48,732 nt of DNA from Candidatus Methanophagales archaeon (GTDB taxonomy: Archaea; Halobacteriota; Syntropharchaeia; Alkanophagales; Methanospirareceae): positions 1 through 48,732 of the forward strand of contig JAGGRR010000017.1 in assembly GCA_021159465.1 (NCBI GenBank). The letters are read 5' to 3'. The notes under the pieces are model-generated. The model was not told the origin of the DNA. It did no database searches and saw only the letters and a list, made by a program, of their open reading frames with translations. Shown in pieces: positions 26,811 through 41,670 of the stretch; within the stretch, counting starts at the first letter, position 1; each line of letters opens with the position of its first letter. A program made the translations under genes and the position numbers.

Positions 26811-26937
26811 TGCACTTCTCTCCTCACCCGTTGCCCGCTGCCTCGGCATTTTATTCTTTCGCTGGTATCTATAAGAGAAAGAGAAAGAATAGTATATAAA
26901 ATTACGGCTCATCTCATCTCATCTGAGTTTATTGTTT

Positions 26938-27533: not shown

Positions 27534-29951
27534 TTATTTCCTTCTCCTCAGCACGAGGTATGCAATTGCGAGCAAGCCTGCAATGGTGAATACCGAAGCA
27601 CCGAAACCTGGTGTTGGCTTTGGTGTGGGCGTAGGTGTTTCTGGTGCTGGTGTTGCTGTAGCCGGTGCTGGTGTAGGCGTTTCTGGTGCTGCAGTTGGCG
27701 CTGGCGTAGGTGTTACTCCAGTTGGTAGCGGTGTGGGCGCAGGTGTTGCACCTGGTGCTAATATCTCCACTGTTACTGTATCTGTATTGCCATCACCATC
27801 ATCTGCTTCAAGCGTATATGTTCCAGGTTTCACACCCGTAGTGTCAATCGTAGCTTCGAACACTCCTTCTTCTGGAGTAGGCCATTCTACTTCCGCTATT
27901 CCTACAGGTAAGTCCATAGGTCCCGCGAAAGTGGAAATCGTTATTAGCGTATCAGATTCGCGGTTCGTTGTTCCACTTACGTACAATGGTTCACCAACTG
28001 TCACTGTCTCTACCTGATTAAACCGAACATATGCAGGCTCTAGTTCAAAGGTCAATAGTACGAGTAGATCGTCACTTCCTGCCCTGTCAATAGTACAGTC
28101 CTGGATTATTGATAATATCTGTGCTTGATCTTTACCCCTAATATCGCCAAACATTTCGGCTTCGATTTCCCCTGCTCCAACACTTTCCGTAAAACCGGCG
28201 TACTCACCATCACGCCCGGGCGAAAGAACCAGTGCTAACCACATACCGGTATCCAGACCTTCGGTCATTGTTATATCCTCGTCGAATTCATCGTTCTTGT
28301 CCACTGACGATGCTATTATCTTAAGCCCGTTTTCTATACTTGGTTTATCCGCACCCCTGGCATATCCTTTGGGTCCTATAAGGATTATATCCACATTGTC
28401 CACACCGGTCGCTGTACCCTCTATCGTATAGTCGTCACCTTCAGCAATTACTTTCCTCGGCTGTGTCGCATTGAGTGCACCACTGACTAACCTTATACTC
28501 GTCTTACCGTCTTCATCTTCACTCTCGTAGGTCTTTACTTTATCCCAGTTATCCTTCGTCACAAATTTTGGATCAATGAAAACATCAATTGTGTATGAGC
28601 CTGTGGTCAACCCTTCTGTCTTCCATTTCACCTCGAATTCGTTGTTCTCGTCTACTGCCTCCTTAAATACTTTATCCGCATCTTCTATAACTATGTAAAC
28701 TTTATCACCCGCGCTTATAGCTCCTTTTATTTTTACTTCTTCGCCAATCACCGCAGTTGATGGTATATCAAAAGTTACCTCTATCTCTGTTACCTCTACG
28801 TCCACGTCATCATCGTCCTTACTATCCACTATCTCACTGTCTTTTACAAATTCTATTTCTTCGGTAAGTTCCTTGTCTTCCGTCATAGGCGTATCATACA
28901 CGTGTATTGTATATGTCCTCTCATCTGCATTTGTTGTACTGATCTTGACATCTGCGATACCATCACTACCTGTCTTTATCCATGCTGCCAGATTCGGCGC
29001 GTCTTTTGAAATCACTTCCTCTCCTGACAGTTTCTTAACATCGCCCGCCATTTTTATCTCCGGCGGTTCGTCTGTATCCACGCCCGTAACTGTAAGATAA
29101 TAGTAAGCCCTTGGGTTGCCTCTAATCTTTAGAACGATGTCCTCACCTTTAACTACTTCTTCTTCCACTGCCTCTATCGAAAGTTCCTCACTGCATAGCC
29201 TGAATTCATACTCCGGTGATGAGACATCCAGTAGATTACAACTTTCTTTATCTGTCTCTATTACAACCCTGTACTCGCCGGTGTCCATATCCTCTAAGTC
29301 TATTGCATCAGAATATGGTGGAGCTTTGGTAGTCCAGATAGGAGTTAAGTCAGTAACAAAGAATGTTGTGGAAATTGCAGGAATATCACTGAGACTTACA
29401 CCATCTATGGATTGAACTTCTGTATCGTCCGGGTCATAAAGTTTGATATCAACTTTCGCACTCGGAATCTTCCCGCCAAAGTTCGGCTCTATTTTGAATA
29501 CTATCTCAGAACTGACTGGAACACTTTTTCCCACCACTGAATCCTGCTTTATATTATTTAATATTACATCACCCGTTATCTCTGGTTCGGCAATGTATAT
29601 GAGTTTACCATCATATTTGGCACCGCCACCAACGCACTTATATTTACCTTCTGTAACTGACGGAACAGTCCATCCTTTAGCATTTACTGTTATTGGAGAC
29701 ACACCTTCGGTAGCTGTATCTTTGACACCTTCAAGCTTGAAATCAGGGTCTCCGGCATCACCATATCTACTATTACCATTTGTATCGAACTTCAGACCCT
29801 GTTCACCAATGTATACAGTATCATTGGCGTCTATCTCGTTAGCTGCTTGTCTTCCCACCGCCACAGGGATTATTGCTGCAAATACTAACGTCAGTGTAAT
29901 CGCCACTATTGCAAGCCCTGTTATCGCTTTTACTCTATTCTTAGTATCCAT
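27534..29951 (-). CDS. Large cell-surface (S-layer-like) glycoprotein candidate with signal peptide and PGF-CTERM anchor signal
   Basis: 805 aa. N-terminal signal/TM is AITGLAIVAITLTLVFAAIIPVAVG. The body is acidic and rich in beta-strand-type sequence. The C-terminal Pro/Thr/Ala linker is APGATPAPTPLPTGVTPTPAPTAAPETPTPAPATATPAPETPTPTPKPT. The end is PGFGASVFTIAGLLAIAYLVLRRRK. Confidence 0.8.
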   Translation of the reverse strand: MDTKNRVKAITGLAIVAITLTLVFAAIIPVAVGRQAANEIDANDTVYIGEQGLKFDTNGNSRYGDAGDPDFKLEGVKDTATEGVSPITVNAKGWTVPSVTEGKYKCVGGGAKYDGKLIYIAEPEITGDVILNNIKQDSVVGKSVPVSSEIVFKIEPNFGGKIPSAKVDIKLYDPDDTEVQSIDGVSLSDIPAISTTFFVTDLTPIWTTKAPPYSDAIDLEDMDTGEYRVVIETDKESCNLLDVSSPEYEFRLCSEELSIEAVEEEVVKGEDIVLKIRGNPRAYYYLTVTGVDTDEPPEIKMAGDVKKLSGEEVISKDAPNLAAWIKTGSDGIADVKISTTNADERTYTIHVYDTPMTEDKELTEEIEFVKDSEIVDSKDDDDVDVEVTEIEVTFDIPSTAVIGEEVKIKGAISAGDKVYIVIEDADKVFKEAVDENNEFEVKWKTEGLTTGSYTIDVFIDPKFVTKDNWDKVKTYESEDEDGKTSIRLVSGALNATQPRKVIAEGDDYTIEGTATGVDNVDIILIGPKGYARGADKPSIENGLKIIASSVDKNDEFDEDITMTEGLDTGMWLALVLSPGRDGEYAGFTESVGAGEIEAEMFGDIRGKDQAQILSIIQDCTIDRAGSDDLLVLLTFELEPAYVRFNQVETVTVGEPLYVSGTTNRESDTLITISTFAGPMDLPVGIAEVEWPTPEEGVFEATIDTTGVKPGTYTLEADDGDGNTDTVTVEILAPGATPAPTPLPTGVTPTPAPTAAPETPTPAPATATPAPETPTPTPKPTPGFGASVFTIAGLLAIAYLVLRRRK

Positions 29952-30377: not shown

Positions 30378-30986
30378 ATGCCCGTAAGTCTCATCGCCAT
30401 CACCGGTACGCCGGGAACAGGCAAGACCTCGGTATGCCGCGCACTTGAGCCTATAAGCGAATATAACATCATCAATTTGAATGCGGTCATCAAGAGCAAA
30501 GGGTTCTACACCGGTATAGACGATGATAGGGGATGCCTTATAGCCGACCTCACCAGATTAGAGGATTACATAAAGAGTGAGGTAGAGAATAGCGAGAAGC
30601 AGGTGGTGATTGAGAGTCATCTTGCGCATCTACTTCAACCTGATGTAGCCATCGTGCTCCGTACCAATCCTGTGATACTCGCCTCGCGATTGATGCAAAA
30701 AGGCTTCACGATGCGGAAGATAGAGGAGAATGTGGAAGCGGAGATGCTGGATGTTATTCTTATAGAAGCAGTGGATTTATGCAAGGTTGTATACGAAGTG
30801 GACACTACTACCAGTGCTATATCGGAGACCGCATCCACAATACGCGAGATTATAGATACGGAGAGCGGCATAGACGCGAGTAGAAAGAAATCACTACGCC
30901 TCAAATTCCGCCCGGGCTCTATAAACAGGAACTGGCTAACATTAACGTACCCGGAGCCTGTCCGCAATCGCTCTTATATCATTTGA
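30378..30986 (+). CDS. Fap7/AK6-type putative adenylate kinase (ribosome-biogenesis NTPase)
   Basis: 202 aa. P-loop IAITGTPGTGKTSV, then ESHLAHLL, AEMLDVILIEA and C-terminal RPGSINRNW are typical of archaeal Fap7. The 3' end overlaps the convergent gene 30942..32036 by 45 nt. Confidence 0.75.
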   Translation: MPVSLIAITGTPGTGKTSVCRALEPISEYNIINLNAVIKSKGFYTGIDDDRGCLIADLTRLEDYIKSEVENSEKQVVIESHLAHLLQPDVAIVLRTNPVILASRLMQKGFTMRKIEENVEAEMLDVILIEAVDLCKVVYEVDTTTSAISETASTIREIIDTESGIDASRKKSLRLKFRPGSINRNWLTLTYPEPVRNRSYII

Positions 30987-32036
30987 TATCTCTGTCAGTG
31001 CTGCTCTTATCTTCAATAACTCACGCGCCGCTCCTCGCTTATCTTCATCTTCACTGCGCGCAAATCGCCCTGCAATTCTACTTATCGAACTCGATTTCGC
31101 ATCTATCTGTCCTGAAACATCTTCCAGAGCCGATGTCGCCGCTTCTATATCCACCCCCCTGCCGCCACCGCGCGTGGCATATACATACACAGATGCAGCA
31201 CCGAGTATCAATCCCAGTACCACTGCCAGAATGAGATAGAGAGCTAATGGCGGCGGCGCCATCTCGGCTGACAATTCCCTGTAATGCCGCGACAGTAGCA
31301 TTGCCCAGCCCGGGTGCCCCTCTTCGTATAACCGCCTAATATCCTCTTCCAGACCTGTTTTTCCTATATCAGACTCTGCAACTGTCAAATTAGCCTCTAT
31401 TGAGCGATTCGCAGCCAGTATCTTCTTATTCGTTGCATAGAACCGCATCACAGGCGACAATTTCTGGATATATGTTATGTTACCACCCTCCATCCTTCCT
31501 ACGCTTAATCTGACTTCTACCCCCTTCTTACTTAGTCCATCGAGGTCATAAGCTTCGAATCCCGGCTCTTTTACTTTCTTCAACGGCTTGGGAACTTCTG
31601 CTGAGAGGATAATCGGTGATGGAAATATCCCTTCATGCGCCTCCTTGCCTTCCCATACAATCCAGTTCCCGGAATGTGATATGTTATCACCGAACTTCCA
31701 TTCGGGGTCAGACATATCTGTGTAGAGTTCCAATACGTAATTCTCAAGAATCGGACTCCCGGTCTTACTCACATATATATGGAATTCAAGCCTCTCACCT
31801 TCCAGCTGGTTGCTACCTAAAACCTCTGTATAATTATGCTCTACGCCCGTGTCCAGATTGCGTACGTATGAACGGTCCACATTCAACTTCAGGACCTCCA
31901 GAGCCGCAGCACCCGGTACTAAATATAGAACTAAAAGTGTCAACAGTATCAGGAATGCACCGGCAGAGATACAGATACGGAGTTTGAGTTTATGTCTTCT
32001 CCCCATCTTCTGCTTCATCCTTATCTCCTTCATCAT
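30942..32036 (-). CDS. Cluster protein 5 (last gene of the minus-strand operon): bitopic membrane protein with an extracytoplasmic ~230-aa domain and a cytoplasmic helical tail
   Basis: 364 aa. TM1 is ICISAGAFLILLTLLVLYLV. TM2 is LALYLILAVVLGLILGAASVYVYA. The helical tail is DIEAATSALEDVSGQIDAKSSSISRIAG ... LLKIRAALTEISNDIRAIADRLRVR. Its ATG (32036) directly abuts the TAG (32037-32039) of the tubulin-like gene. Confidence 0.7.
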   Translation of the reverse strand: MMKEIRMKQKMGRRHKLKLRICISAGAFLILLTLLVLYLVPGAAALEVLKLNVDRSYVRNLDTGVEHNYTEVLGSNQLEGERLEFHIYVSKTGSPILENYVLELYTDMSDPEWKFGDNISHSGNWIVWEGKEAHEGIFPSPIILSAEVPKPLKKVKEPGFEAYDLDGLSKKGVEVRLSVGRMEGGNITYIQKLSPVMRFYATNKKILAANRSIEANLTVAESDIGKTGLEEDIRRLYEEGHPGWAMLLSRHYRELSAEMAPPPLALYLILAVVLGLILGAASVYVYATRGGGRGVDIEAATSALEDVSGQIDAKSSSISRIAGRFARSEDEDKRGAARELLKIRAALTEISNDIRAIADRLRVR

Positions 32037-34772
32037 CTATTTTATCCCCCCTCTCTTTCCTTCTTCCTTTATATCAAGCGACAATTCAGGCAGTTCCATC
32101 TGTTCCTGCTCTTGCTCCTGCCCCTTACCTTTGCCTTGACCTTGACCCTGACCCTGTTCTAATTCTAACTCAGATTCGCCAGCTTCTATCATGCCCTTCA
32201 ACTCACGCAATGAGGATGACATCTCCGCCAGCGGTTCCCCGATAGCTCTTATCCCTCTCGCTGCTTTCATACTATCTTCCCTTATTCTTGAGAGCTCACT
32301 TTCCGCTTTTGTTATATGCCTTATCACCGCGGAGGTAGTCTCTTTAGAGGGTATCGCGCCGAGGAATTCCGTCGCCTTCTCCACCACTACCTTTATATCG
32401 CTACTGAAACTGTTTGATATCTCCTCTATCCTGTCAAGCAATATCTCAATATCCCGTATCGCATCATCTACCATTCGCAGCATCTTCACTGCCTTGTCGC
32501 CTGCGGGCGGTTTGATACCTTTCAATCGCGCAGTAAGGTCATCAACCTGGGTTTTTAACTGCCCGAATCCCCTGCTCGCTTCTCTTGTCCACCGTTTCAG
32601 CTTCTCCATGCTCTTGCCCGCTTTCTCCAGTCCATGCACCAGCATCGTCAGGCTCGCTATTGAGTAGTTGTCCGGGATTCCCAGATTCTTTATCCCCTCT
32701 GCAACGTCCAGCCCGGTAAGTAAATCATCAAACATCTTCAAACACTGTGCAAGCACCACAGGCGTATTATTCCAGATCGCTTCCGGCTCGATTAACTCAT
32801 AATTCCTCCAGAAATTCGTCACTGCATCCCTGTTCTTCTCTTCCGCGCCCGGAGTATATCCTATATTGGTAATAATGGCGAACGGCTTGCTTGTGCCATA
32901 GAATAAAGAGTGATGCCTCTGTAATCTCGCGAAGTCACTCTCCTTATACGCCTGCTCCAGCCATTCCAGCTCTCGCATCCGCGGTGGCAAACCCGGTCCC
33001 GGCGCCCATGGCTGTAACCCAATCATCAGAGTGTATATAGCGAAACTATGTGCTCGCGCGGGCGTATCCAGCTTCAGTACATCTGCATCCTTCGCAAATC
33101 GCTCGGTCACCATACTCTTGAATGCACCGCCTCCCAGCCGCGCATCATCAAAATTGTCCGCACGCGTACTCAGTACCGCGATGAAATGCCCGAGCTTCTC
33201 CTCTTCTTTCATTATGTTCCCCCGTGCATCCACCTCCAGGAATCCATAATCATGCAGTAGCTCGATATACCGCGATGCCAGCGTGCTTTCAATCGAATGC
33301 CGGTAGTTCAACATCGGATTGAATATGATATCACCCTCGTTTATCGGCGCATGAGTCCAGCGGAAATACTCGTCCTCACGACCCAGGTGTTCCATAATCT
33401 CCTTGAATGACATCTTCTTCATGTCTTCTCTGCGCTTCTTCAGGCTCTTCACCTCTTCCTCCGAGAGCTCTATCTGATGATAACTCCTTGTATTCTGCGG
33501 CGTCGTTATCTCCCGCAATAGCCTGTTCTTCAATGCATCCAGCCGTTCTAATCTCCGTTCCATCTGCCTCTTCTCCTCCTCCGCATCGCTCACCCGGACC
33601 TCGAGGTCAAAGACCGCTTCCTTCAACTCACTCAATTTCTTACGTGCTCGCTCCAGTTTCGTCTTACCTTCCTCCACCGCCGCGAGATTCACATGCGTGA
33701 ACAGTCCTACCCCTTCTTTTGATTCGTAATCCTCAATTACACGCTGAGCTTCCCTTATACGTGCTTCGTATCGCTCCAGTTCACCCCGCTGCGATTCTAT
33801 CTTGCCCTGTATCTCCGAGATTCGCGCTTCTATCTCCACCAGCTTCTCTCTCACCACCGGTATCTCGTCCTCCACCTCATAATACAGGAACAGTTTCTCT
33901 GTTGGGAATACACACTCGTAATAGCCCATGGTATCAAATCGGTTCTCATACCCCCTCGCTCTGTTCTGCAGGTCGTTGAGGTCCAGCCACTTCCCCCGCA
34001 TCTCCACCTTACCCCCTGGTAAGAATCCGAGATCGAGCAGGAACCTGGGTATCGCCCTCTCCAGTTCCTCATCCCTGTTCTGACCCTGAAGGTCTCTACC
34101 CAGGAGGAAGAAGAGTTTAAATGGATTTGAGTAATTCTTATCCTCAATTATTATCTCCTCGCTGTGCGACATGAGGAAATGGAGCTCTTTCAGTGTTCCA
34201 AGCGCATTTGCAGTTGGTAACGCTGATTCCTTACTCGAGGGCAGTATCCCTATCCCGAAGATCACGGGCTCCGAACCGAACTGCTTCGATATCCAATCCC
34301 GTACATCTATTGCAACATCCAGGACCATGCTCGAGCCAGTGCCACCCCCAAAAGCACAGACCATAATGATGAAGAAGTCCTTACCACCCGTTCTGTTCCT
34401 TAGTTCCGATGCTGCCGCACCTATCGCACTGAATATCCTCTCACGGTGCACATTATACATCGCCCTGCCATATATACGATGTTGCCCGCAGCCCGCACCG
34501 GCTGCCGATAGATACGGGTCTGGTAACCACTGGTTTACATTCTTCATCAATATCGTGTCCGGTCTACTGAGAATTATCTTCCTCCGCTCCTCTATCTCAG
34601 TACATGCGTTCGCTGATGCCTGGTCGGTATCAATAATCAGAAACTCCTCGTTCTTCGGCACTTTACCCGTACTACGCTTCAGCATTCGCAATATGTTATT
34701 CACAATGAAACTCCCCTGCCCTCCTATCCCTATTACAATCCGATTTACTGTATCCTCACGCAACTCCACCAT
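32037..34772 (-). CDS. Large (911 aa) tubulin/FtsZ-superfamily GTPase-domain protein with long coiled-coil and helical C-terminal extension
   Basis: Motif order matches tubulin/FtsZ. G1-like IVIGIGGQGSFIVNNIL (nt 34710-34730). LIIDTD. T3-like AGAGCGQHRIYGRAMY. Signature loop FIIMVCAFGGGTGSSMVLDVA (GGGTGSS = nt 34329-34349, checked on the nucleotide sequence). IFGIGILPS. Charged heptad-rich sequence follows (aa ~300-450, e.g. REKLVEIEARISEIQGKIESQRGELERYEARIREAQRVIEDYE). The low-complexity tail is ELELEQGQGQGQGKGKGQEQEQEQ. Confidence 0.75.
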   Translation of the reverse strand: MVELREDTVNRIVIGIGGQGSFIVNNILRMLKRSTGKVPKNEEFLIIDTDQASANACTEIEERRKIILSRPDTILMKNVNQWLPDPYLSAAGAGCGQHRIYGRAMYNVHRERIFSAIGAAASELRNRTGGKDFFIIMVCAFGGGTGSSMVLDVAIDVRDWISKQFGSEPVIFGIGILPSSKESALPTANALGTLKELHFLMSHSEEIIIEDKNYSNPFKLFFLLGRDLQGQNRDEELERAIPRFLLDLGFLPGGKVEMRGKWLDLNDLQNRARGYENRFDTMGYYECVFPTEKLFLYYEVEDEIPVVREKLVEIEARISEIQGKIESQRGELERYEARIREAQRVIEDYESKEGVGLFTHVNLAAVEEGKTKLERARKKLSELKEAVFDLEVRVSDAEEEKRQMERRLERLDALKNRLLREITTPQNTRSYHQIELSEEEVKSLKKRREDMKKMSFKEIMEHLGREDEYFRWTHAPINEGDIIFNPMLNYRHSIESTLASRYIELLHDYGFLEVDARGNIMKEEEKLGHFIAVLSTRADNFDDARLGGGAFKSMVTERFAKDADVLKLDTPARAHSFAIYTLMIGLQPWAPGPGLPPRMRELEWLEQAYKESDFARLQRHHSLFYGTSKPFAIITNIGYTPGAEEKNRDAVTNFWRNYELIEPEAIWNNTPVVLAQCLKMFDDLLTGLDVAEGIKNLGIPDNYSIASLTMLVHGLEKAGKSMEKLKRWTREASRGFGQLKTQVDDLTARLKGIKPPAGDKAVKMLRMVDDAIRDIEILLDRIEEISNSFSSDIKVVVEKATEFLGAIPSKETTSAVIRHITKAESELSRIREDSMKAARGIRAIGEPLAEMSSSLRELKGMIEAGESELELEQGQGQGQGKGKGQEQEQEQMELPELSLDIKEEGKRGGIK

Positions 34773-34780
34773 CCTATCCT

Positions 34781-35221
34781 CTATACCTCCTTCTCCCTCG
34801 CTTCATAGTCTGATATCCTTCTCTTTATGTCGCTCATCTCCTCATCGAAGTGTTCTATCTCCACCCCGCTGCCTCTTATCTCACTCTCCATCCTCGTAAC
34901 TGCACTATCTATGCTCCTTGCGGTAGCTACCAGCTTCTTCGCTTCCTTCTCGCCCCTTAACCATATCACAATGCCCGCCAATCCCAATACAATGCCCATC
35001 GCCACTATCGCATATATAACAACAGAGCGAGCAGATTCTGATAGAGATGATAGAAGTTTCTCCCGGTATTCATTCAATGCGAAAGCTAAAGCGGCTAATA
35101 TAACGCCCATGATGGGCATGAGAAGCAACATCTTGTCCACTTTCATTCGCATCAACATCAACACTACTTCCACAACCATCACAGACGCAACGACGAGAAA
35201 AGCTATGCTCTGGAGTTCCAT
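34781..35221 (-). CDS. Cluster protein 3: small 3-TM membrane protein with a cytoplasmic charged helix
   Basis: 146 aa. Hydrophobic helices are IAFLVVASVMVVEVVLMLM, LLLMPIMGVILAALAFAL and VVIYAIVAMGIVLGLAGIVIWL. The tail is KKLVATARSIDSAVTRMESEIRGSG ... RRISDYEAREKEV. Its stop lies 8 nt before the tubulin-like gene start, with AGGA in the gap. Confidence 0.65.
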   Translation of the reverse strand: MELQSIAFLVVASVMVVEVVLMLMRMKVDKMLLLMPIMGVILAALAFALNEYREKLLSSLSESARSVVIYAIVAMGIVLGLAGIVIWLRGEKEAKKLVATARSIDSAVTRMESEIRGSGVEIEHFDEEMSDIKRRISDYEAREKEV

Positions 35222-35300
35222 TTTTTATATACATTATCTGATTTTAATCACAATAAAAAAAATGTTTCTCCCTTTTTGAGAATATAATCAATCTTCAATC

Positions 35301-36578
35301 TTAGCTTAGAGCTGAATCTGATCTTATATACTTTAGCCGTTCTGAATCATAGCTCAACCTCGAAAGAGCATCAGAAGCGAGAAGTCTGTATTTGCGTACG
35401 AAAACGTCAGTGCTCTCTTCTTTCGCTATCGCTCTCAATTCCTCTACCTCGCTTAGCTTATCCCTCGACCAGTATTCCACAGGGTATGCATCTGTTCCCG
35501 GGTTCTCAGCCTGTATCTCCGTTTCCAGCTCGAATATCTGCTTATAAAGCTTCTCCAGCAATGCTACTGTTAGTTTCATCAGTGAATTACCATAGCTCAG
35601 TAACTTTGGCATCTGTGACGGCAACATGCATCCCTCTATCCTATCCTTCAGCTCCTTCACCTCAGCATCATCCGATATCTCTGCCGCTACTCCTGCCAGT
35701 ACGAGTACGTCCGCTTTATAACGTTCAAATTCATCACTCAACATCGCACTCAACTGTACAACCACATTCTTCAATAATTCCACCGCGTTATCGTAATTAC
35801 CATGCTCTATGCTATGCTCTGCGAGCTTTATATCTGTCCTGACCCTGGCAGTATCTGCATTCACTCGCTCACGCGCTATCGCTTCTAACTCCATCGCACT
35901 CTTCACGCATATCCACAGTGATTCTTCTATGAGGGAGATCACTTCGTTCATGAACATAGCGAGCTCAAGCAGTTCCTTCTCTATATCCAGACCTATATCC
36001 TCCAGTTTCTTCTCCATCTGCTCTATTTGTGGACCTATATCCAGACCCTCTTTCCTGAGCTCTCTCAGTGCTATCAAATACTCACTGCATCTATCCTTTA
36101 ATCGCGAGCAGAGCACCATTTCGTGCCGCTCAGTTATCTCATGGAGCATCTTATCCACCCACTCAACATCAGCAAAGACCACTCTTCTCAGTTGCGCACT
36201 GTTCATCCTCAACTGCCCGGTTATCTTACATCCGAGTTCTGATAAGCCGCCTTTCACTTTCTCCAGATCTGTTCTGAACTCCTTTGTACTTATCCGATAC
36301 TTCTCTTCGAAATCACGCAATATTCGCATCTCCTCCATATATCGGTTTGCAATTGCCCGGATGTCCCGCTCCATTACCTGTTCCCTCACACTCCTCTTCC
36401 TTACTGCGACAAGGTATCGCACAAGGAACGAGACACCGATCATAGCAGGGATGAAGATCAGGATGATGGTGATTGCGAGGTCAGAGCCGGTATTGAATAA
36501 TATGAAGATAGCAATAGCAATCAAAGCTAAGAATGCCAGTGGTACCAGTATACTTACAGTTATACTATATCGTTTCAT
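35301..36578 (-). CDS. Cluster protein 2: membrane-anchored (2 TM) protein with a ~350-aa all-helical / coiled-coil cytoplasmic domain
   Basis: TMs are ITVSILVPLAFLALIAIAIFILF and LAITIILIFIPAMIGVSFLVRYLV, followed by long charged helical sequence. The track start at 36584 is TTG. I prefer the ATG at 36578 (MKRYSITV), which overlaps the upstream gene's stop (36565) by 14 nt. Confidence 0.7.
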   Translation of the reverse strand: MKRYSITVSILVPLAFLALIAIAIFILFNTGSDLAITIILIFIPAMIGVSFLVRYLVAVRKRSVREQVMERDIRAIANRYMEEMRILRDFEEKYRISTKEFRTDLEKVKGGLSELGCKITGQLRMNSAQLRRVVFADVEWVDKMLHEITERHEMVLCSRLKDRCSEYLIALRELRKEGLDIGPQIEQMEKKLEDIGLDIEKELLELAMFMNEVISLIEESLWICVKSAMELEAIARERVNADTARVRTDIKLAEHSIEHGNYDNAVELLKNVVVQLSAMLSDEFERYKADVLVLAGVAAEISDDAEVKELKDRIEGCMLPSQMPKLLSYGNSLMKLTVALLEKLYKQIFELETEIQAENPGTDAYPVEYWSRDKLSEVEELRAIAKEESTDVFVRKYRLLASDALSRLSYDSERLKYIRSDSALS

Positions 36579-37458
36579 GTGCAAGCCCCCTTAGCTCTCG
36601 CAGTCGTTTCAACTGCTCGAACCTGTAAACGAAGAGATTTGTTATCGCTGCTATATTCCGCTTTGTGGTACAGACTGCCAGATAGCATTCCTTTGTATAC
36701 ATAAGCATGAACTCCTCCACCAGTTCCTTATCCACTCGCTCTTCCCTGACATAATACTCAGGAACACGCAGGAATGTAATACCCCGTTCGCTGCTTAGCG
36801 GGGCTTCTGCGATGCTTAGCTTCTCCATGGATACCCGAATGAGGGTTCGGAGGTCGAGCGGTTTATGGCTCAGAAATGGCAGGATATAGCCAGCAAGTCC
36901 CTTCGTGAGCTCAGAAGCCCTTGATAGTGCTGCATAGCCCGGCTCGTCACTGAACGAGATAATGCTTAATAGTCTGTCTATATTCATTGCCGCTGTTTTA
37001 TCTCTCACTCCCGCCAGGATGTCCACGATACACGATGCTATATATCGGTTATAACGTGGATAATACCGTTCGAAGTTTGGAAGATGCGCTATCCTCTGGT
37101 TATCAACAATTATGAAGCTATTGATATATTCTTTCAGCTTCTCCAGTGTATAGAACGCTTTTATTAAGTTCTCGCTCTTCTGACGCCGCATCGCAGGCAG
37201 AACACCAACAAACAGCGTTTTTATACCACTCTCTGATAGCATTGCCGCTGCCCGGGATATCTCATCACCGTCATCGAGTTCTGAGATCACAAAAGCGAAA
37301 TCAGCTCCCTTTTCTCGACTTATTCTCGCCTTATTCCACTCTTTATCACTCCTTAACCTGATTACAATCGGTTTATCCCGCCTTATCTCTTTATACTCCA
37401 GCACTGAGTTGAGTATTGCAGTTCCTGAAGACCCTATTCCTATGAAGAAGTATGCCAT
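36565..37458 (-). CDS. Cluster protein 1: FtsZ/CetZ-like protein with a degenerate nucleotide-binding loop (putative pseudo-GTPase)
   Basis: 297 aa. The N-terminus FFIGIGSSGTAILNSVLEY resembles the FtsZ/CetZ G1 strand-loop. ADFAFVISELDDGDEISRAAAMLSESGIKTLFVGVLP aligns by eye to aDmVFItaGmGGGTGtGaaPv.A..ak..giLtVgvVt.P, with GGGTGxG replaced by ELDDGDE. INSFIIVDNQRI resembles vDtlIviPNdkL. AAMNIDRLLSII resembles the T7 region iNvDFaDv. The T2/T3 segment appears to be missing. Confidence 0.5.
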   Translation of the reverse strand: MAYFFIGIGSSGTAILNSVLEYKEIRRDKPIVIRLRSDKEWNKARISREKGADFAFVISELDDGDEISRAAAMLSESGIKTLFVGVLPAMRRQKSENLIKAFYTLEKLKEYINSFIIVDNQRIAHLPNFERYYPRYNRYIASCIVDILAGVRDKTAAMNIDRLLSIISFSDEPGYAALSRASELTKGLAGYILPFLSHKPLDLRTLIRVSMEKLSIAEAPLSSERGITFLRVPEYYVREERVDKELVEEFMLMYTKECYLAVCTTKRNIAAITNLFVYRFEQLKRLRELRGLAHETI

Positions 37459-37506
37459 ACCGTTTAATACCTTTAAAATCTTATTGCATATACCATAAAT
37501 ATTGAG
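37459..37506. promoter_or_regulatory. 48-bp AT-rich divergent intergenic region (candidate bidirectional promoter of the cluster)
   Basis: The sequence is accgtttaatacctttaaaatcttattgcatataccataaatattgag. It has TATA-like TTTAAAAT (about 37473-37480), roughly 30 nt upstream of ATG 37507. On the other strand ATTTATGG/TATATGC lies 30-40 nt upstream of ATG 37458. There is no room for long leaders. Confidence 0.35.
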
Positions 37507-38484
37507 ATGAAAAGTGGCAGCATAGCTATAATGATGTCCAGGCTTATGCTCATGCTTATGCTTATATCCATACTGCTGCTGGGTTATACGCTACCGGTAG
37601 CAGGCTCGGACGAGTTAAAGAGGAGTTTGCTACGCGATATAATATCAATGGATAAAACGGAGTTATTTAATAATTACGGCGAGCTGGCGCTTGCAAAGGC
37701 GAAGACACAGGCAGTGATTCAGGGCATGCCTGGCTATGAAGTGACCGCGAAGACCAGAAACTGGGTGAACATCCTCATTGAGATTATCAATGACTTTGAA
37801 GCAATGACTGCCCTGAGCGAGAATGAAGAGCCATCATATCATATAGGAGCCATCAGGAAAGCAGAAGCGATCAACAATTCTATATATGAGTTGAGGAGAT
37901 ACGAGACACCGGAAAGAGAGGGGATACCCATGCTTTTAGAACTCGCACTTAAGCGTTTTTACCGAAAAGAGGGGTTCTTCTTTCAGAATATCGCGGCTAA
38001 CACGGGGGAGACAAGATTGAAGATCGAATACGAATATATAAGTTCAAACGCATATGCATTGGGAGGGATGCCCAGCGACGCCACGCGAATGGAGTTCGAG
38101 GCGAGGCGCGATGAGCGTATATATAACAGGGATATGAATCGAGCTAAGGAGTATATAAACGCCTCAGAACTACACCTGCACAAAGCCATGAACTCCCGTT
38201 CTGCATTCTTCGGCGCTGCATTCATGCAGATAATAAAAGCACGCGATTCGTTCGAGCAAGCGAAGGAGTTATATGAGAAGCATAAAGATAAAGAGCTGGA
38301 GAACGTGAAGGTAAGGGAAACAGAGATAGAAGCTGTTTACCGCAGATTGATGCTCGATACACTTGAGGTCGTTGCATTATATCTCATTGCCCTATCTCTA
38401 ATTACCGGTATCCTATGGATGAAGTTCATGAGATGGCATGGCGAGCTGGATGACACGATGCTGGGTGAGGAGCTCATTGAGTAA
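37507..38484 (+). CDS. Cluster protein 6: signal-peptide protein with a helical extracytoplasmic domain and a C-terminal TM anchor
   Basis: 325 aa. N-terminal signal is MSRLMLMLMLISILLLGYTLPVAGS. An alpha-helical, charged body of ~270 aa follows. The C-terminal TM is VVALYLIALSLITGILWMKF, followed by an 18-aa acidic tail. Confidence 0.7.
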   Translation: MKSGSIAIMMSRLMLMLMLISILLLGYTLPVAGSDELKRSLLRDIISMDKTELFNNYGELALAKAKTQAVIQGMPGYEVTAKTRNWVNILIEIINDFEAMTALSENEEPSYHIGAIRKAEAINNSIYELRRYETPEREGIPMLLELALKRFYRKEGFFFQNIAANTGETRLKIEYEYISSNAYALGGMPSDATRMEFEARRDERIYNRDMNRAKEYINASELHLHKAMNSRSAFFGAAFMQIIKARDSFEQAKELYEKHKDKELENVKVRETEIEAVYRRLMLDTLEVVALYLIALSLITGILWMKFMRWHGELDDTMLGEELIE

Positions 38485-38526
38485 TAGGATAAGGGGAAGG
38501 AATAAGGACAGGATGATGGTAGGATA
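38485..38526. repeat. Purine-rich quasi-hexameric spacer between cluster genes 6 and 7
   Basis: TAGGAT AAGGGG AAGGAA TAAGGA CAGGAT GATGGT AGGATA. AGG recurs about every 6 nt. Confidence 0.7.
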
Positions 38527-38531
38527 AAATA

Positions 38532-40973
38532 ATGAAAGGAAAAAATCGGATGATTACTATTGCACTTCTGATATGCGCAGGTATGATGATGATAATTACT
38601 ACATCCACAATAGAATGCGCCGGTGCATCATCTGCTATTTCAGTAACTCCTTCTACTGTGAACATATTTTTCGATTCTCCCACAAAGGATACATTCACAG
38701 CAGACAGGACTGTAACAATAACCAATACCGGTGAAAACGCAACCAATGTGAGTATCATACCAAGTTATGATTACATTATTATTACACCGCGTGAATTTAC
38801 GCTCAACAGTGGCGAATCACGTCAAACCACAATTGAAGCAGATAAAAGCGCAGAGGAAGGTTCATACACTGTCCATATAAAAACCGATACTGATACCGAG
38901 ACCAGTATCACCGTCAATATAATCTACTGTGCGAAGATTACAGTGTCTACATCGCAATATCCTATTGATTTTGGTGAGGTTGCCAGCACCAGCACTGTAT
39001 CAAAAGAGATTACTTTAAGTGAAGAGTACGGGTACAAAACCCTGAGTGATGTGACAATAACACGAATTTCGGGCGAGAATGACTGGGTTAAACCATCCCC
39101 GAGCAGTGGTATCACCGTCTCATCATCCCAAGATAAACATATTAGATTCACACTCACGCCTGGACCACCTGATTACAGTAGACGCGATAACAGATATACG
39201 TGGAAGTTTAGCATTAGAAGTGGTAGCCGGTACGTAGAACCCGCTACAATAACAATCGAAGCCCGGATAATGAGACCGGCGAAGCTCGGTGAAGTAGCAC
39301 ACGCGAAAAAGTTGAATCTCAAGTTCGATAAGCCACGGGGAACCGTCATGGAGTATCATAGGTATACCTATCTGGCAATAAAGAACGAAGGCGATGAACC
39401 CATGACAGTAAGGGTCACCCGCCCACCACCCTTAGGTGGCTATATTCATGTGGATGCACCCAGTAAGGTTACTGTCGCCGGGAGGGATACCAAAAAACTC
39501 AAACTCCATATTACTGCACCATACGATGCACCTGAAGGCACCTATAAAGGTATATTACATTTAGACGCTGGCAAGGCGGGTAAGGCTGATGTGGTCATAA
39601 GTGTAGTGGTGATATGGCCAGTGGATTTCAACATCTCGTCCTCTTCGCCCTATTTCTCATATCCGCCACTCTCTATAGACTTTGGCTCCTTACAACTGAA
39701 GGACCGGGGATATGAGCAGCGAAGACTGAATCTCACACTTACTGAGTACTATCGCTATAAGCCCGTCAGGAACTTGCGGCTCTCAACAGAGGGTGAATAC
39801 AGCAACTGGTTAAAGGATAGGCATGATTTCGCACTGATTCCACCCGGAGAATCGAGGAACATCACTATTGTGATACAGCCGGGACTGGAAGCGGTACCTA
39901 AGCACTATTCCTGGACGTATTATCTCAGTGCGCGTGAGATAAGTGCCAAGCGAGTACAGATAAGAGCGAAGATCGTGCCCCTGAATATCCCTGAGATGAT
40001 TAAATACCTGGATGCATTCAGAGAAAGCCAGTTGCATCGAAGCTATCCCTCATCGGAATATATAATATCAAATGGGACAGAACTGCTGCAGGATATAGAG
40101 CGTAGCGAGATAGGAGTGGAGGACTGGCGTAAAATACCCGTGTTGATAAGAGCAACACTATCCTTATTAGATGCTTTGAACAACAGTATTATGCATAGTG
40201 CTAACAGAGATTATGACCATGCAGTTGAGAACTTATTGGCTGCTTCGGTCTCCACATCCACCATCGACTCGAATTCATTACTGAATAATGACCGCATCTT
40301 TGGGTATGCAACCGAGATCGCAGCCAGCGCGGACAGGACAACCCGGGAGGTAGCGAGAGAAGAAGCGAAGATGCTTGAGTTACGTGCATGGAGTGTAAAG
40401 AAAGCAGTAGAGCATGCCAGGGATGATATAAGCAGGTTAAAAGAGGATGAGAATGTGCTTGAATCCGCGTTGTGCTATCAACATGCTGCTACACTCTATG
40501 GACTGCTCAATGAGCGACAGAAGAGGCAGGAATGCATCTATGAGAAGTCCAAGATGATGGACTGGCATGATGAACTGGTTAGTGATGCAACAGACCTCCG
40601 CATAAGGGCAGAGGGTATCATCTCAGATAGCAGAGAGAGAGACCTCGTCAGACTCTGGAACAGATATCTGCTCCTGAACCCTTATAATTATGATACTTTC
40701 TCCGCCAGTTATGAAACCGCAGCGAGATACTTTGAGAGGGCATCGGATAAATACAGGCTGGCAGGTGAGTCTTTTCTATACCGAGACACCATATCCGAGT
40801 TGAAAGAATTGGAGGCAGAGAGGAGCAGTATAATCTCTTTATTCTTCATTTCATGCATACTCTATGCCATCATCTTCTTATATGCGCTGAACCGGATAGT
40901 CTGTGGCACGATGGCGTATTTAAAAGATACTTACGAGCGAGAGATAGGGAACATCATGGTTAACGCCGGATAG
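38532..40973 (+). CDS. Cluster protein 7: 813-aa envelope protein with a signal peptide, several beta-sandwich (Ig/CARDB-like) modules, a helical region and a C-terminal TM anchor
   Basis: The signal is ITIALLICAGMMMIITTSTIECAGA. Four repeated module openings read as follows. ISVTPSTVNIFFDSPTKDTFTADRTVTITNTGENATNVSI. ITVSTSQYPIDFGEVASTSTVSKEITL. YLAIKNEGDEPMTVRV. IDFGSLQLKDRGYEQRRLNLTL. A helical region of ~290 aa follows, then TM IISLFFISCILYAIIFLYAL. Confidence 0.7.
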   Translation: MKGKNRMITIALLICAGMMMIITTSTIECAGASSAISVTPSTVNIFFDSPTKDTFTADRTVTITNTGENATNVSIIPSYDYIIITPREFTLNSGESRQTTIEADKSAEEGSYTVHIKTDTDTETSITVNIIYCAKITVSTSQYPIDFGEVASTSTVSKEITLSEEYGYKTLSDVTITRISGENDWVKPSPSSGITVSSSQDKHIRFTLTPGPPDYSRRDNRYTWKFSIRSGSRYVEPATITIEARIMRPAKLGEVAHAKKLNLKFDKPRGTVMEYHRYTYLAIKNEGDEPMTVRVTRPPPLGGYIHVDAPSKVTVAGRDTKKLKLHITAPYDAPEGTYKGILHLDAGKAGKADVVISVVVIWPVDFNISSSSPYFSYPPLSIDFGSLQLKDRGYEQRRLNLTLTEYYRYKPVRNLRLSTEGEYSNWLKDRHDFALIPPGESRNITIVIQPGLEAVPKHYSWTYYLSAREISAKRVQIRAKIVPLNIPEMIKYLDAFRESQLHRSYPSSEYIISNGTELLQDIERSEIGVEDWRKIPVLIRATLSLLDALNNSIMHSANRDYDHAVENLLAASVSTSTIDSNSLLNNDRIFGYATEIAASADRTTREVAREEAKMLELRAWSVKKAVEHARDDISRLKEDENVLESALCYQHAATLYGLLNERQKRQECIYEKSKMMDWHDELVSDATDLRIRAEGIISDSRERDLVRLWNRYLLLNPYNYDTFSASYETAARYFERASDKYRLAGESFLYRDTISELKELEAERSSIISLFFISCILYAIIFLYALNRIVCGTMAYLKDTYEREIGNIMVNAG

Positions 40974-41112: not shown

Positions 41113-41670
41113 ATGAAGAAGTTGGTAGTGGCTATTATTGCTCTGGCTTTAATAGGAGTAATGGCAGGCTGTGTGCAGAAACCAGAAGTGACGCCGCCGC
41201 CAGAGGCAACACCTACAGTGACACCAAAAGTAACACCAAAGGTGACGCCTGCATCAACACCAGTGGAAGTAAAACCACAACCTCAGGTGAAGACGAGTTG
41301 CGATATGTGTCATAAGAGGGAATCAACAGCGAATTTGAAAGCTCATGTGGAAGGTGGACTGCTGGTGAATGGTAAACCTGGCTGTTTTGACTATGCAGGC
41401 AAGTCGAATCTTGCGAGTGGCTGTCATGGTCGTAAGAATGCCACTGTGCATACTGTTCATCCCTCAACAGTTGGATGTATAGTATGCCATGGCAAGATAC
41501 CGACGATACCGAAGAAAGGACCAGGAGGTACGACCTGTGAGGAATGTCACGGCTATCCTGAGCCATTAAAGCCGAGCAAAGGGAATCTTGTGAATATACA
41601 TCTTTCAAGGGGTAAGGACTGCACAGTTTGCCATGTCGGGGAGATATCTCAGATACATGGTCTGAAGTGA
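41113..41670 (+). CDS. Small multihaem c-type cytochrome, probable lipoprotein
   Basis: 185 aa. Signal plus lipobox-like LIGVMAGC. Pro/Thr-rich linker TPPPEATPTVTPKVTPKVTPASTP. Four canonical CxxCH motifs (CDMCH, CIVCH, CEECH, CTVCH). One additional CH (ASGCH) has a distant upstream Cys. Confidence 0.85.
   Translation: MKKLVVAIIALALIGVMAGCVQKPEVTPPPEATPTVTPKVTPKVTPASTPVEVKPQPQVKTSCDMCHKRESTANLKAHVEGGLLVNGKPGCFDYAGKSNLASGCHGRKNATVHTVHPSTVGCIVCHGKIPTIPKKGPGGTTCEECHGYPEPLKPSKGNLVNIHLSRGKDCTVCHVGEISQIHGLK

Follow-up and report, generated by a model that had tools for sequence, protein, structure and literature searches.

The seven-gene cluster at positions 30942-40973 of a 48,732-nt stretch of DNA from a Candidatus Methanophagales archaeon (contig JAGGRR010000017.1; the whole stretch is referred to below as the window) was given an even chance of encoding a cytoskeletal complex that is tethered to the membrane, spans the envelope and is built on two tubulin-superfamily proteins of different kinds. 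Its open reading frames (ORFs) were labelled g1 to g7, and the organism belongs to anaerobic methanotrophic archaea group 1 (ANME-1). This reading was favoured because at least two different tubulin-fold proteins are found in every related system; because in ANME-1 one tubulin is, to judge by its motifs, nucleotide-dead while the other has been replaced by an FtsZl1 protein with its own anchors; because every tubulin-fold gene has beside it, or is translationally coupled to, the gene of a membrane protein whose cytoplasmic helical domain is conserved; because three single-pass proteins expose helical or Ig-like ectodomains yet keep conserved cytoplasmic tails; and because the locus is vertically inherited and housekeeping-like, without a defence or viral signal.

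The larger of the two tubulin-superfamily proteins, g4 (911 aa, 32037..34772, minus strand), belongs to FtsZl1/Tubulin_2. It matched Pfam PF13809 (Tubulin_2) between aa 12 and 295 (E 1.3e-24; 87.6 bits against a cut-off of 27), with a weaker match to PF00091. The tubulin/FtsZ motif series that the preliminary description of the window had read at its N-terminus was borne out, the T4 motif GGGTGSS being placed at aa 142-148 (34329..34349). T1 (GIGGQGS, aa 15-21, 34710..34730) and a T7-like WLDLNDL (33969..33989) were, like T4, invariant in alignments, which also identified a T3-like AAGAGCGQHR (34476..34505). Residues G15, G17, G18, G20, G142-S147, D264 and D267 did not vary from ANME-1 through Thermoplasmatota (alignments A1 and A3), and the invariant motifs, including the T3-like GAG.G...R, held in alignments reaching Altiarchaeales and Thermoplasmatota homologues of 29-34% identity. 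At motif level, therefore, g4 was shown to have what GTP binding would require, i.e., T1, the T3-like element and T4. The D264/D267 pair of 'KWLDLNDL' is the probable T7 equivalent, because its DxxD spacing and its position, just ahead of a short helix, match the FtsZ T7 NxDxxD, and because active small relatives have 'IDxxDI' in the equivalent place. An AlphaFold2 model of g4, built on 39 homologues, contained a confident GTPase domain (aa 10-250, 34023..34745), and Foldseek matched the N-terminal ~285-320 residues to CetZ (E 4.8e-7) and to eukaryotic and Odin tubulins (~1e-5 to 1e-4).

Beyond the GTPase domain, the model showed an antiparallel coiled-coil hairpin (aa 291-423, 33504..33902; helices 291-354 and 363-423), which drew SMC/Rad50-type noise matches, then a conserved but poorly modelled middle region (aa 426-600), and a confident helical bundle (aa 600-866, 32175..32975), with helices extending over 600-876. 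The tail was disordered in the model and consists of a variable acidic linker followed by the peptide ELP(D/E)LSL (32076..32096), which is ANME-1-specific and near-invariant there. In the window the linker is a low-complexity GQ/EQ stretch (aa 874-891, 32100..32153) with the lineage-specific insert GQGQGQGKGKGQEQEQEQ, corresponding at the DNA level to a period-6 tandem repeat (32123..32156, Tandem Repeats Finder); the linkers of close relatives are unrelated and of other lengths, a sign of rapid evolution in this segment. Borg elements have also been reported to encode Tubulin_2 proteins with tandem repeats (PMC9879509).

The second protein, g1 (297 aa, 36565..37458, minus strand), has a tubulin/FtsZ fold and belongs to a family here called TUB-b. 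Its AlphaFold2 model, built with 41 homologues, was a complete two-domain fold (pLDDT 88.3, pTM 0.89). Compared with the PDB by Foldseek, it gave probability 1.00 and 292 matches at E up to 0.001, and all 50 matches listed were CetZ, FtsZ or tubulin; the best was CetZ 3zid (E 1.4e-14, TM-score 0.72-0.74), with both domains covered. A profile of the g1 family matched FtsZ 2r6r in the PDB with E 1.3e-6 and CetZ with 0.005. As a single sequence g1 was sub-threshold (PF00091 E 0.003, 18.2 bits against a cut-off of 33; FtsZ 2r6r E 0.006), while among its relatives PF00091 scored 38 bits in the Syntrophoarchaeum orthologue and 65 bits in P0172, and many ANME-1 orthologues have a precomputed match. 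Both proteins therefore have the fold first proposed for them, given these models and the Tubulin_2 match of g4.

In g1 the T1 loop is retained (GIGSSGT, 37420..37440), as is a conserved C-domain motif (SRASELTKGL, 36895..36924). Alignments with active relatives showed that the T2/T3 segment is deleted in both ANME-1 and Syntrophoarchaeum. At the T4 position ANME-1 has an acidic loop three residues shorter than T4 (SELDDGDEIS, 37255..37284; aligned as SELDDG-DEIS), where Syntrophoarchaeum retains GLGGEIGGT, and the DxxD of relatives is not kept. Against the TUB-b hidden Markov model (HMM) g1 scored E 4.9e-48, with HMM positions 34-115 unmatched. A HMMER scan of 1.84 billion representative proteins returned 65 clusters of relatives at 50% identity: a separate small family in which ANME-1 occupies one cluster and Syntrophoarchaeum another, and ~25 further clusters comprise proteins of 345-540 aa that align end to end. 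These longer, active relatives keep T1 (GxGQAG), T2/T3 (NST..DL and GGFGKNP), T4 (GLGGGTGCG) and IDxxD. Since g1 has lost T2/T3 and T4 where its relatives keep both, it is a predicted pseudo-GTPase derived from an active family. The 'degenerate GTP loop' originally noted in this protein was correct and understated, the T2/T3 segment being gone as well, and the proposed pairing of an active-looking GTPase with a pseudo-GTPase was upheld by the intact motifs of g4 and the lost pocket of g1. The g4 N-domain is closer to TUB-b than to the remaining tubulin families of these loci; g1 and g4 as recent paralogues were rejected, BLASTP and hhalign showing superfamily-level similarity only.

The ORF list reproduced every coordinate of the preliminary description, and its spacings: the 14-nt overlap of g1 and g2, the 8-nt gap between g3 and g4, the abutting of g4 and g5, and the 48-bp AT-rich spacer between the divergent g1 and g6. 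When the seven proteins were compared with the ORFs of 92 loci (numbered with the prefix L below) by BLASTP and HMM searches, the complete layout g7<g6<|>g1>g2>g3>g4>g5 was found in at least 12 further ANME-1 loci. It was also found in Syntrophoarchaeum, at 36-63% identity and between wholly different flanking genes; since the same gene order and orientation recur with unrelated flanks, the arrangement is not due to chance, and the seven genes are co-conserved in ANME-1 and Syntrophoarchaeum, as had been supposed. The junctions were similar in orthologous loci: g1 and g2 overlap by 4-20 nt (-20, -14 or -4), g3 always lies immediately upstream of g4 (beside it in 40 loci, at ~10 nt in orthologous clusters), and g5 always follows g4, with a 4-nt overlap in most loci. 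The g1/g2 overlap in the window suggests translational coupling. The divergent g1/g6 junction was retained, mostly at 30-47 bp, and a junction of this type also occurs in the non-ANME relatives L094-096, L131, L157 and L167. In the window this intergenic region (37459..37506) contains, on reading the sequence, a TATA-like TTTAAAAT at 37472..37479, and is presumed to be a bidirectional promoter.

The g2/g3 spacer alone was loose, ranging from 24 to 271 nt among orthologous loci. In the window (35222..35300, minus strand) it has a T8 run followed by an AT-rich TATA-like stretch, with ATTAAAAT ~20-27 nt before the g3 ATG, and may act as a promoter or a terminator; a scan for sigma-70 promoters and intrinsic terminators gave no enrichment, these models being unsuited to archaea. 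The spacer is the boundary between two modules: A (g7, g6 | g1, g2) and B (g3-g4-g5, always together). Some ANME-1 loci (L020, L023, L030, L046 and L048) have g3-g4-g5 only, behind unrelated genes, and the two-module structure follows from ANME-1 genomes in which the modules, both retained, are on different contigs; in genome CONS3730B06UFb1, module B is found in L030 and module A (g7<g6<|>g1>g2) in L088. The original view of the cluster as one system was therefore upheld as regards conserved synteny, but not as regards indivisibility.

Within ANME-1 the median identity to the window was 75.5% for g4 (range 74-79%) and 51-59% for the other six genes (47-63%), while the adjacent kinase gene, at 56-63%, fell below g4. 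The neighbouring genes are core genes, encoding CdhC (the beta subunit of acetyl-CoA synthase/carbon monoxide dehydrogenase), phosphoenolpyruvate synthase, RpoE, TruD, GatB and ferredoxin, and GC content is even throughout the region. Given the strong conservation of g4, these neighbours, the uniform GC and the lack of a defence or viral signal, the locus appears to behave as a vertically inherited housekeeping cluster in ANME-1. A near-identical contig was PQXC01000009.1 of the metagenome-assembled genome (MAG) 'Candidatus Methanophagaceae archaeon G60ANME1', with 94-98% protein identity to the window and 99% for the g4 tblastn match. Two short contigs assigned to other organisms carried g3-g4-g5 or g4-g5 at 71-77% identity to ANME-1, namely L009 (DYFG01000126.1, 'Nitrosotalea sp.') and L041 (MAXT01000297.1, 'Desulfuromonadales bacterium C00003107'); these are almost certainly mis-binned ANME-1 sequences in public MAGs.

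Relatives of module A were sought in JGI metagenomes with an alignment of active TUB-b relatives, which produced 80 loci. Profiles derived from ANME-1 identified g6 homologues in 36 of the 80 and g7 homologues in 26. Orthogroup clustering gave a typical array of F7, TUB-a, F5, TUB-b, a ~90-aa protein, F2, G2L, TUB-c, F4, G6 and G7. Homology was unambiguous by hhalign for g2 and G2L (probability 99.5%, E 5.6e-23, 391 columns), g6 and G6L (100%, E 2.7e-41), and g7 and G7L (100%, E 1.3e-85, 752 columns), and reciprocal HMMs from outside ANME recovered the ANME-1 g2 (1e-29 to 1e-39), g6 (1e-54 to 1e-59) and g7 (~1e-108). These homologous operons have 5 to 11 genes, with two or three active-looking non-canonical tubulin paralogues; partial degeneration of one paralogue may be common among them. 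Exact-sequence look-ups and tblastn placed the arrays in Haloquadratum walsbyi, Halolamina, Halobaculum, Natrinema, and Hydrothermarchaeota and Methanoperedenaceae MAGs, as well as in the Altiarchaeales MAG that carries L001. A whole array of 11 tightly packed, overlapping genes (OE_RS12075 to OE_RS12025) was found on pHS2 of Halobacterium salinarum R1 (L173 5118..22345; NC_010369.1 172619..189846), comprising three tubulin-superfamily paralogues and eight membrane or unknown proteins; module A HMMs matched its proteins with E 1.7e-50, 1.7e-12 and 1.7e-53. It is annotated merely as 'cell division protein FtsZ' or 'hypothetical protein', and the Haloquadratum walsbyi C23 protein CCC39494.1 is curated as 'FtsZ family protein, noncanonical'. 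The Haloquadratum TUB-a (L120 5114..6961) has a long disordered, Zn-ribbon-like N-terminal extension, and its T4 reads VTKGTGCG, not GGGTG.

Among compact, low-GC versions of these arrays, L131 and L167 have the order G7<G6<|>TUB-b>G2L>TUB-c, as do the partial contigs L127 and L137, and the ANME-1 layout is this compact layout with g3-g4-g5 in the TUB-c slot. No homologues of TUB-a, TUB-c, F2, F4, F5 or F7 were found in ANME-1 loci, nor of TUB-a or TUB-c in Syntrophoarchaeum loci, and the haloarchaeal module A arrays had no FtsZl1 (g4), g3 or g5 nearby. In L099, from an unrelated low-GC organism, TUB-b and TUB-a genes lie ~3.7 kb upstream of a g3-like gene and g4. The gene combination had been set apart as unlike any described system; no described match was found, but module A is not peculiar to ANME-1 and belongs to a wider archaeal operon.

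Module B also has relatives outside ANME-1. The g5 family, which has no Pfam domain, occurs in ANME-1, Syntrophoarchaeales, some 'Methanosarcinales' MAGs, Altiarchaeales and a few unassigned contigs. Where it occurs outside ANME-1, g5 directly follows a full-length FtsZl1, itself preceded by a small polytopic membrane protein (L001, L090, L091 and L092); in the Altiarchaeales loci L001, L090 and L091 the g3 position is held by a non-homologous polytopic protein of ~214 aa. Beside this trio in the same three loci, on the opposite strand, is a gene for a 444-461-aa PF00091 protein with an intact GGG(S/T)GCG. The Altiarchaeales WOR_SM1_79 MAG carries both modules, on separate contigs. Its divergent operon in L001 (1188..5747) encodes, besides the 461-aa tubulin-like protein, an unknown protein of 304 aa and a secreted Peptidase_C92 protein of 711 aa (a permuted papain-like amidase), which may be linked to the system as an enzyme that modifies the envelope. 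In FtsZl1 loci further afield (Bathyarchaeia, Nitrososphaeria, Gemmataceae and others), only the g4 N-domain was shared, and the other genes of the cluster were missing. Of the full-length g4 homologues, the most distant, at 34% identity and without g5, was in Thermoplasmatota (L002 4185..12772, JBTSOB010000005.1); ~3 kb downstream of it is a MoxR-type AAA ATPase/DUF58/DUF4350/DUF4129 (BatA-like) set, recalling the vWA-MoxR contexts of other FtsZl1 genes.

The five other proteins are membrane proteins, and Kyte-Doolittle hydropathy with the positive-inside rule reproduced the topologies first described for them. g2 (35301..36578, with an alternative start to 36584, minus strand; 425/427 aa) has two N-terminal transmembrane (TM) helices, a positively charged stretch and ~365 helical residues predicted to be cytoplasmic. 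g3 (34781..35221, minus strand; 146 aa) has three TM helices and a charged C-terminal helix, also predicted to be cytoplasmic. g5 (30942..32036, minus strand; 364 aa) is type-I-like, with a signal peptide or N-terminal TM helix, a ~215-aa ectodomain, a TM helix and a 75-aa helical tail; its orthologues, in an alignment that included Altiarchaeales, have a clear Sec-type signal ending A-x-A, and its cytoplasmic tail is highly conserved (0.76). On the opposite strand, g6 (37507..38484, plus strand; 325 aa) has a signal peptide, a ~250-aa helical ectodomain, a C-terminal TM helix and a short tail, and g7 (38532..40973, plus strand; 813 aa) likewise has a signal peptide, after which come some four beta-sandwich modules of Ig-like type (aa ~35-480) and then helical sequence (aa ~480-760), before a C-terminal TM helix and a short tail. 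The Ig-like modules had been read from the window alone, and orthologues of g7 did match Ig-like Pfam families (HYDIN/VesB Ig 5.2e-8, FixG_C 7.7e-7, NPCBM_assoc 1.4e-5). By predicted topology, it was shown that g2, g3 and g5 put conserved helical domains on one side of the membrane, and that g5, g6 and g7 put large domains on the other.

The cytoplasmic tails were at least as conserved as the ectodomains. Those of g6 (38434..38484, consensus ELDDTRLGEELIV) and g7 (40908..40973, consensus YEREVGDIIV) are conserved in orthologues and end alike, RLGEELIV compared with REVGDIIV, giving the motif (L/V)G(E/D)x(L/I)(I/V)V; this hints at a shared docking signal, and the two tails may have a common cytoplasmic receptor. 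Pfam and NCBIfam scans of g2, g3, g5 and g6 gave no match over threshold, and PDB sequence-profile searches with g2, g5, g6 and g7 returned nothing meaningful. Two possible identities were rejected with hhalign: that g6 and the helical region of g7 are paralogues (E 0.33), and that g5 corresponds to haloarchaeal F2 or F4 (not significant).

The mechanism envisaged is as follows. g4 would polymerise head-to-tail in a GTP-dependent manner at the inner face of the membrane, where the cytoplasmic helices of g3 and g5 would keep it in place; in ANME-1 its flexible linker and ELPDLSL might add to this, in the way that the FtsZ C-terminal peptide docks. g1, tied to the membrane through g2, would be a non-catalytic partner that binds the polymer as its cap, nucleator or lateral adaptor, and in that capacity would stand in for the active TUB-b/TUB-c pair of related systems. 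The single-pass g5, g6 and g7 would relay the position or dynamics of the polymer to the helical and Ig-like ectodomains beneath the surface layer (S-layer), consistent with the filament-to-envelope coupling suggested in the preliminary description. The output would be to organise the envelope locally, for shape, growth of the surface layer or contact between cells, and not primary cytokinesis, because Haloquadratum, with a related array, also expresses ftsZ1, ftsZ2 and sepF; these canonical genes are present and highly expressed (PMC5496347). In cellular terms, shape, patterning of the S-layer, vesicles and the septation of sheathed chains are all candidate outputs. A bolder version, which was thought rather doubtful, would make the cluster the ANME-1 form of an ancient and hitherto unrecognised archaeal 'multi-tubulin trans-envelope machine', in which two or three paralogues (here an active FtsZl1 and a nucleotide-free pseudo-tubulin) co-assemble on membrane anchors of their own, with single-pass proteins as the mechanical link to Ig-like and helical ectodomains below the S-layer, patterning the surface or shape with a subunit specialisation like that of eukaryotes.

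Several observations weigh against a cytoskeletal, envelope-spanning complex. No C-terminal tubulin domain was found in g4 by Pfam scan, and so filaments of the FtsZ type may perhaps never form; Makarova and Koonin voiced the same caveat for FtsZl1 (PMC2875224). The T7-like region of g4 (aa 253-285) had a pLDDT below 50 in AlphaFold2, and ELPDLSL is absent from the g4 of Syntrophoarchaeum and Altiarchaeales. The topologies are predicted from hydropathy and the positive-inside rule, and all protein-protein contacts are deduced from gene linkage. Module A is patchy across archaea, and in haloarchaea is carried on secondary replicons or megaplasmids, which fits an accessory trait. Orthology between g1 and the 444-461-aa tubulin of L001, L090 and L091 was unsupported (hhalign E 0.097). 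Finally, adjacency to the S-layer-type gene is weak evidence of function, because it occurs at only four other loci.

Among other explanations, a machine for membrane remodelling, or for forming vesicles or tubules, is unlikely, though it fared best; here the membrane would be deformed or pinched by polymerised g4, while g2, g3 and g5 would serve as adaptors, and g6 and g7 would be cargo or coat on the outside. It overlaps with the favoured cytoskeletal complex in its first steps, differing in output only. The FtsZl1 architecture of g4 is that for which such a role was predicted by Makarova and Koonin, all partners are membrane proteins, and the helical bundle drew weak, non-significant Foldseek matches to ClyA-type alpha-pore-forming, membrane-inserting toxins (E 0.02-0.1). 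However, the partners behind that prediction (vWA, kinase, GTPase and OmpA) are all missing here, as are ESCRT-like, dynamin-like and lipid-binding domains, and the large structured ectodomains with conserved tails suggest a stable trans-envelope assembly over a scission device.

An accessory role in cytokinesis or septation, adapted to unusual envelopes such as those of sheathed ANME-1 chains and flat, square Haloquadratum, with g2 acting as an EzrA/ZipA-like regulator, seems a shade less probable than remodelling. Such a role would suit g1, with its FtsZ/CetZ fold, g4, with FtsZ-like motifs and an FtsZ-like linker-plus-peptide tail, and g2, with its EzrA-like architecture. Public annotations also name the relatives 'cell division protein FtsZ', but those names are automatic. 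The highly expressed canonical division genes of Haloquadratum argue against it, as do the patchy distribution and plasmid or secondary-replicon location in haloarchaea, which are unlike an essential division function, and the lack of a SepF, CdpB or Min-type partner in the cluster in Pfam and NCBIfam scans.

That the two modules are unrelated, and mere neighbours in part of the ANME-1 lineage, was considered improbable. They are separate in the ANME-1 loci that have g3-g4-g5 only and in Altiarchaeales, and haloarchaeal module A arrays lack a nearby g4 or g5. Yet the split genome CONS3730B06UFb1 retains both; adjacency has been held over the divergence of ANME-1 and Syntrophoarchaeum with unrelated flanks; L099 independently places TUB-b and TUB-a near a g3-like gene and g4; ANME-1 has no TUB-c, and a TUB-b that appears dead, exactly where FtsZl1 is inserted; and a second tubulin-like gene accompanies FtsZl1-g5 elsewhere too (L001, L090 and L091). 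A function in mobile elements or in conflict, either TubZ-like segregation or anti-virus defence, is very improbable: module A relatives do occur on haloarchaeal megaplasmids with a patchy archaeal distribution, and FtsZl1-type genes do occur in Borg extrachromosomal elements, but the cluster has no TubR-like DNA-binding protein or centromere-like repeat, five of its seven products are envelope proteins, PADLOC gave only weak, coiled-coil-type g4 matches to JetC/LmuB (aa ~300-460), no relative of g4 was found in IMG/VR and its plasmid matches were only distant bacterial FtsZl1, and the ANME-1 cluster sits among core genes at uniform GC, apparently inherited vertically and with a strongly conserved g4.

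The locus gives a concrete conserved context both to FtsZl1, an orphan prediction since 2010, and to the 'non-canonical' archaeal tubulins, so far mentioned only in passing. For FtsZl1 this context includes two fixed membrane partners, g3 and g5. TUB-b emerges as a small, distinct FtsZ-like family, active-looking in most lineages and degenerate in ANME-1, and g2, g6 and g7 as three conserved envelope proteins recurring from ANME-1 to haloarchaea, so that two formerly unconnected groups of orphan genes, the FtsZl1 module and the non-canonical tubulin arrays, are now linked. Archaea may have tubulin-based assemblies of several specialised paralogues that span the membrane, and the cluster provides, as far as its sequences indicate, a natural case, outside eukaryotes, of an active GTPase and a pseudo-GTPase of the tubulin superfamily being paired. 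In ANME-1 itself, its genes are candidate determinants of the characteristic envelope and cell form. Because Halobacterium salinarum R1 has a homologous 11-gene array on its plasmid pHS2, genetics and imaging can be brought to bear on the question in a culturable model organism.

Beyond g5, the nearest genes are a putative kinase of the AAA_18/PRK03839 type (30378..30986, plus strand) and the S-layer-like neighbour named in the preliminary description (27534..29951, minus strand; 805 aa). That label was apt: the protein has a PGF-CTERM of 24 bits against a Pfam cut-off of 18.8 (NCBIfam 22.1 against 24.5), and it matched the S-layer glycoprotein families MEMAR_RS02690 (E 1.6e-57) and HVO_2072 (E 1.7e-44), both under the curated equivalog cut-offs. 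The kinase and S-layer pair follows g5 in just L032, L035, L036 and L045, while the split module A of L088 has a 793-aa protein and an AAA_18 gene nearby. Directly after g7 (41113..41670, plus strand) is a gene for a 185-aa, lipoprotein-like, small multihaem c-type cytochrome, with four CxxCH and matches to cytochrome c7/c3 in Pfam; it is kept in the G60ANME1 contig and could bear on extracellular electron transfer in ANME-1. Convergent with g7 (41721..42887, minus strand) is a gene whose 388-aa product is secreted or anchored and has a single CARDB/Ig-like module (E 1.9e-4, slightly below cut-off); a homologue was seen only in the near-identical L032. Further away, a 325-aa ORF (25935..26912, minus strand) matched an acylphosphatase domain and has YadA-head-repeat-like and AlpA-like stretches, possibly driven by low complexity or repeats.

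A literature search found neither module described as a system, within a coverage that excluded most subscription journals. The preliminary statement that no characterised system fits was sustained, and the described partners of FtsZl1 are absent here. Brown and Duggin (2023) recorded 'non-canonical TSF proteins' of patchy distribution but did not analyse them (PMC9856176), and the Haloquadratum genome and transcriptome papers leave the array unmentioned (PMC5496347).

Among known systems, TubZRC shares with the cluster a divergent tubulin-like GTPase outside the division machinery, and plasmid location in the case of module A relatives. It differs in that the cluster has five envelope proteins and no TubR-like DNA-binding protein or centromere; Pfam and NCBIfam scans found no helix-turn-helix or ribbon-helix-helix domain in the cluster, and its tandem repeats were just short and low-scoring. 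Alpha/beta-tubulin is comparable in that two diverged tubulin-fold proteins are encoded together here too, one with a compromised catalytic or nucleotide role. However, alpha-tubulin has kept its ability to bind GTP, whereas T2/T3 and T4 are gone from g1, and g4 is without the C-terminal domain. The tethering of FtsZ by FtsA, ZipA, SepF and EzrA follows a similar logic, with a tubulin-fold polymer and membrane proteins with cytoplasmic domains. EzrA has a TM anchor and a long helical cytoplasmic domain, which the architecture of g2 resembles; no homology to SepF, FtsA, ZipA or EzrA was detected in the cluster proteins by Pfam, NCBIfam or PDB profile searches. The acidic linker and short peptide of g4 look suggestively like the C-terminal linker and peptide of FtsZ, although the peptide is restricted to ANME-1.

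CetZ (3zid, 4b45 and 4b46), an accessory, non-division cytoskeleton of Euryarchaeota, was the best structural match of both g1 and the g4 N-domain. It differs in that sequence identity is 12-18%, g1 is without a GTP pocket, and the g1 profile favours FtsZ over CetZ. CetZ genes are not known to be embedded in membrane-protein operons of this kind.

FtsZl1 was predicted by Makarova and Koonin in 2010 from operons with vWA, Ser/Thr kinases, a P-loop GTPase and OmpA, and given a role in membrane remodelling (PMC2875224); as had been stated at the outset, it is still a computational prediction only, with just passing mentions in later literature. g4 shares with it the N-terminal FtsZ-like GTPase domain with GGGTGS, the long coiled coil and the alpha-helical C-terminal region, likewise without a canonical C-terminal tubulin domain and likewise among membrane proteins. 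The differences are in partners and motifs: vWA, Ser/Thr kinase, P-loop GTPase and OmpA were found neither in the seven proteins nor in their immediate neighbours by Pfam and NCBIfam scans, g4 being partnered here by g3, g5 and another tubulin-fold protein that brings a membrane module of its own; and a T7-like invariant DxxD was identifiable in g4, where the 2010 alignment did not reach past H5 (PMC2875224). In the haloarchaeal arrays, TUB-b, G2L, G6 and G7 are homologous to g1, g2, g6 and g7, with topologies alike, and the divergent layout is alike in low-GC relatives. These arrays differ in having two or three paralogues that look GTPase-competent and the extra membrane proteins F2, F4, F5 and F7. 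In ANME-1, by comparison, TUB-b is degenerate, TUB-a and TUB-c are missing, and the place of TUB-c is taken by the FtsZl1 module.

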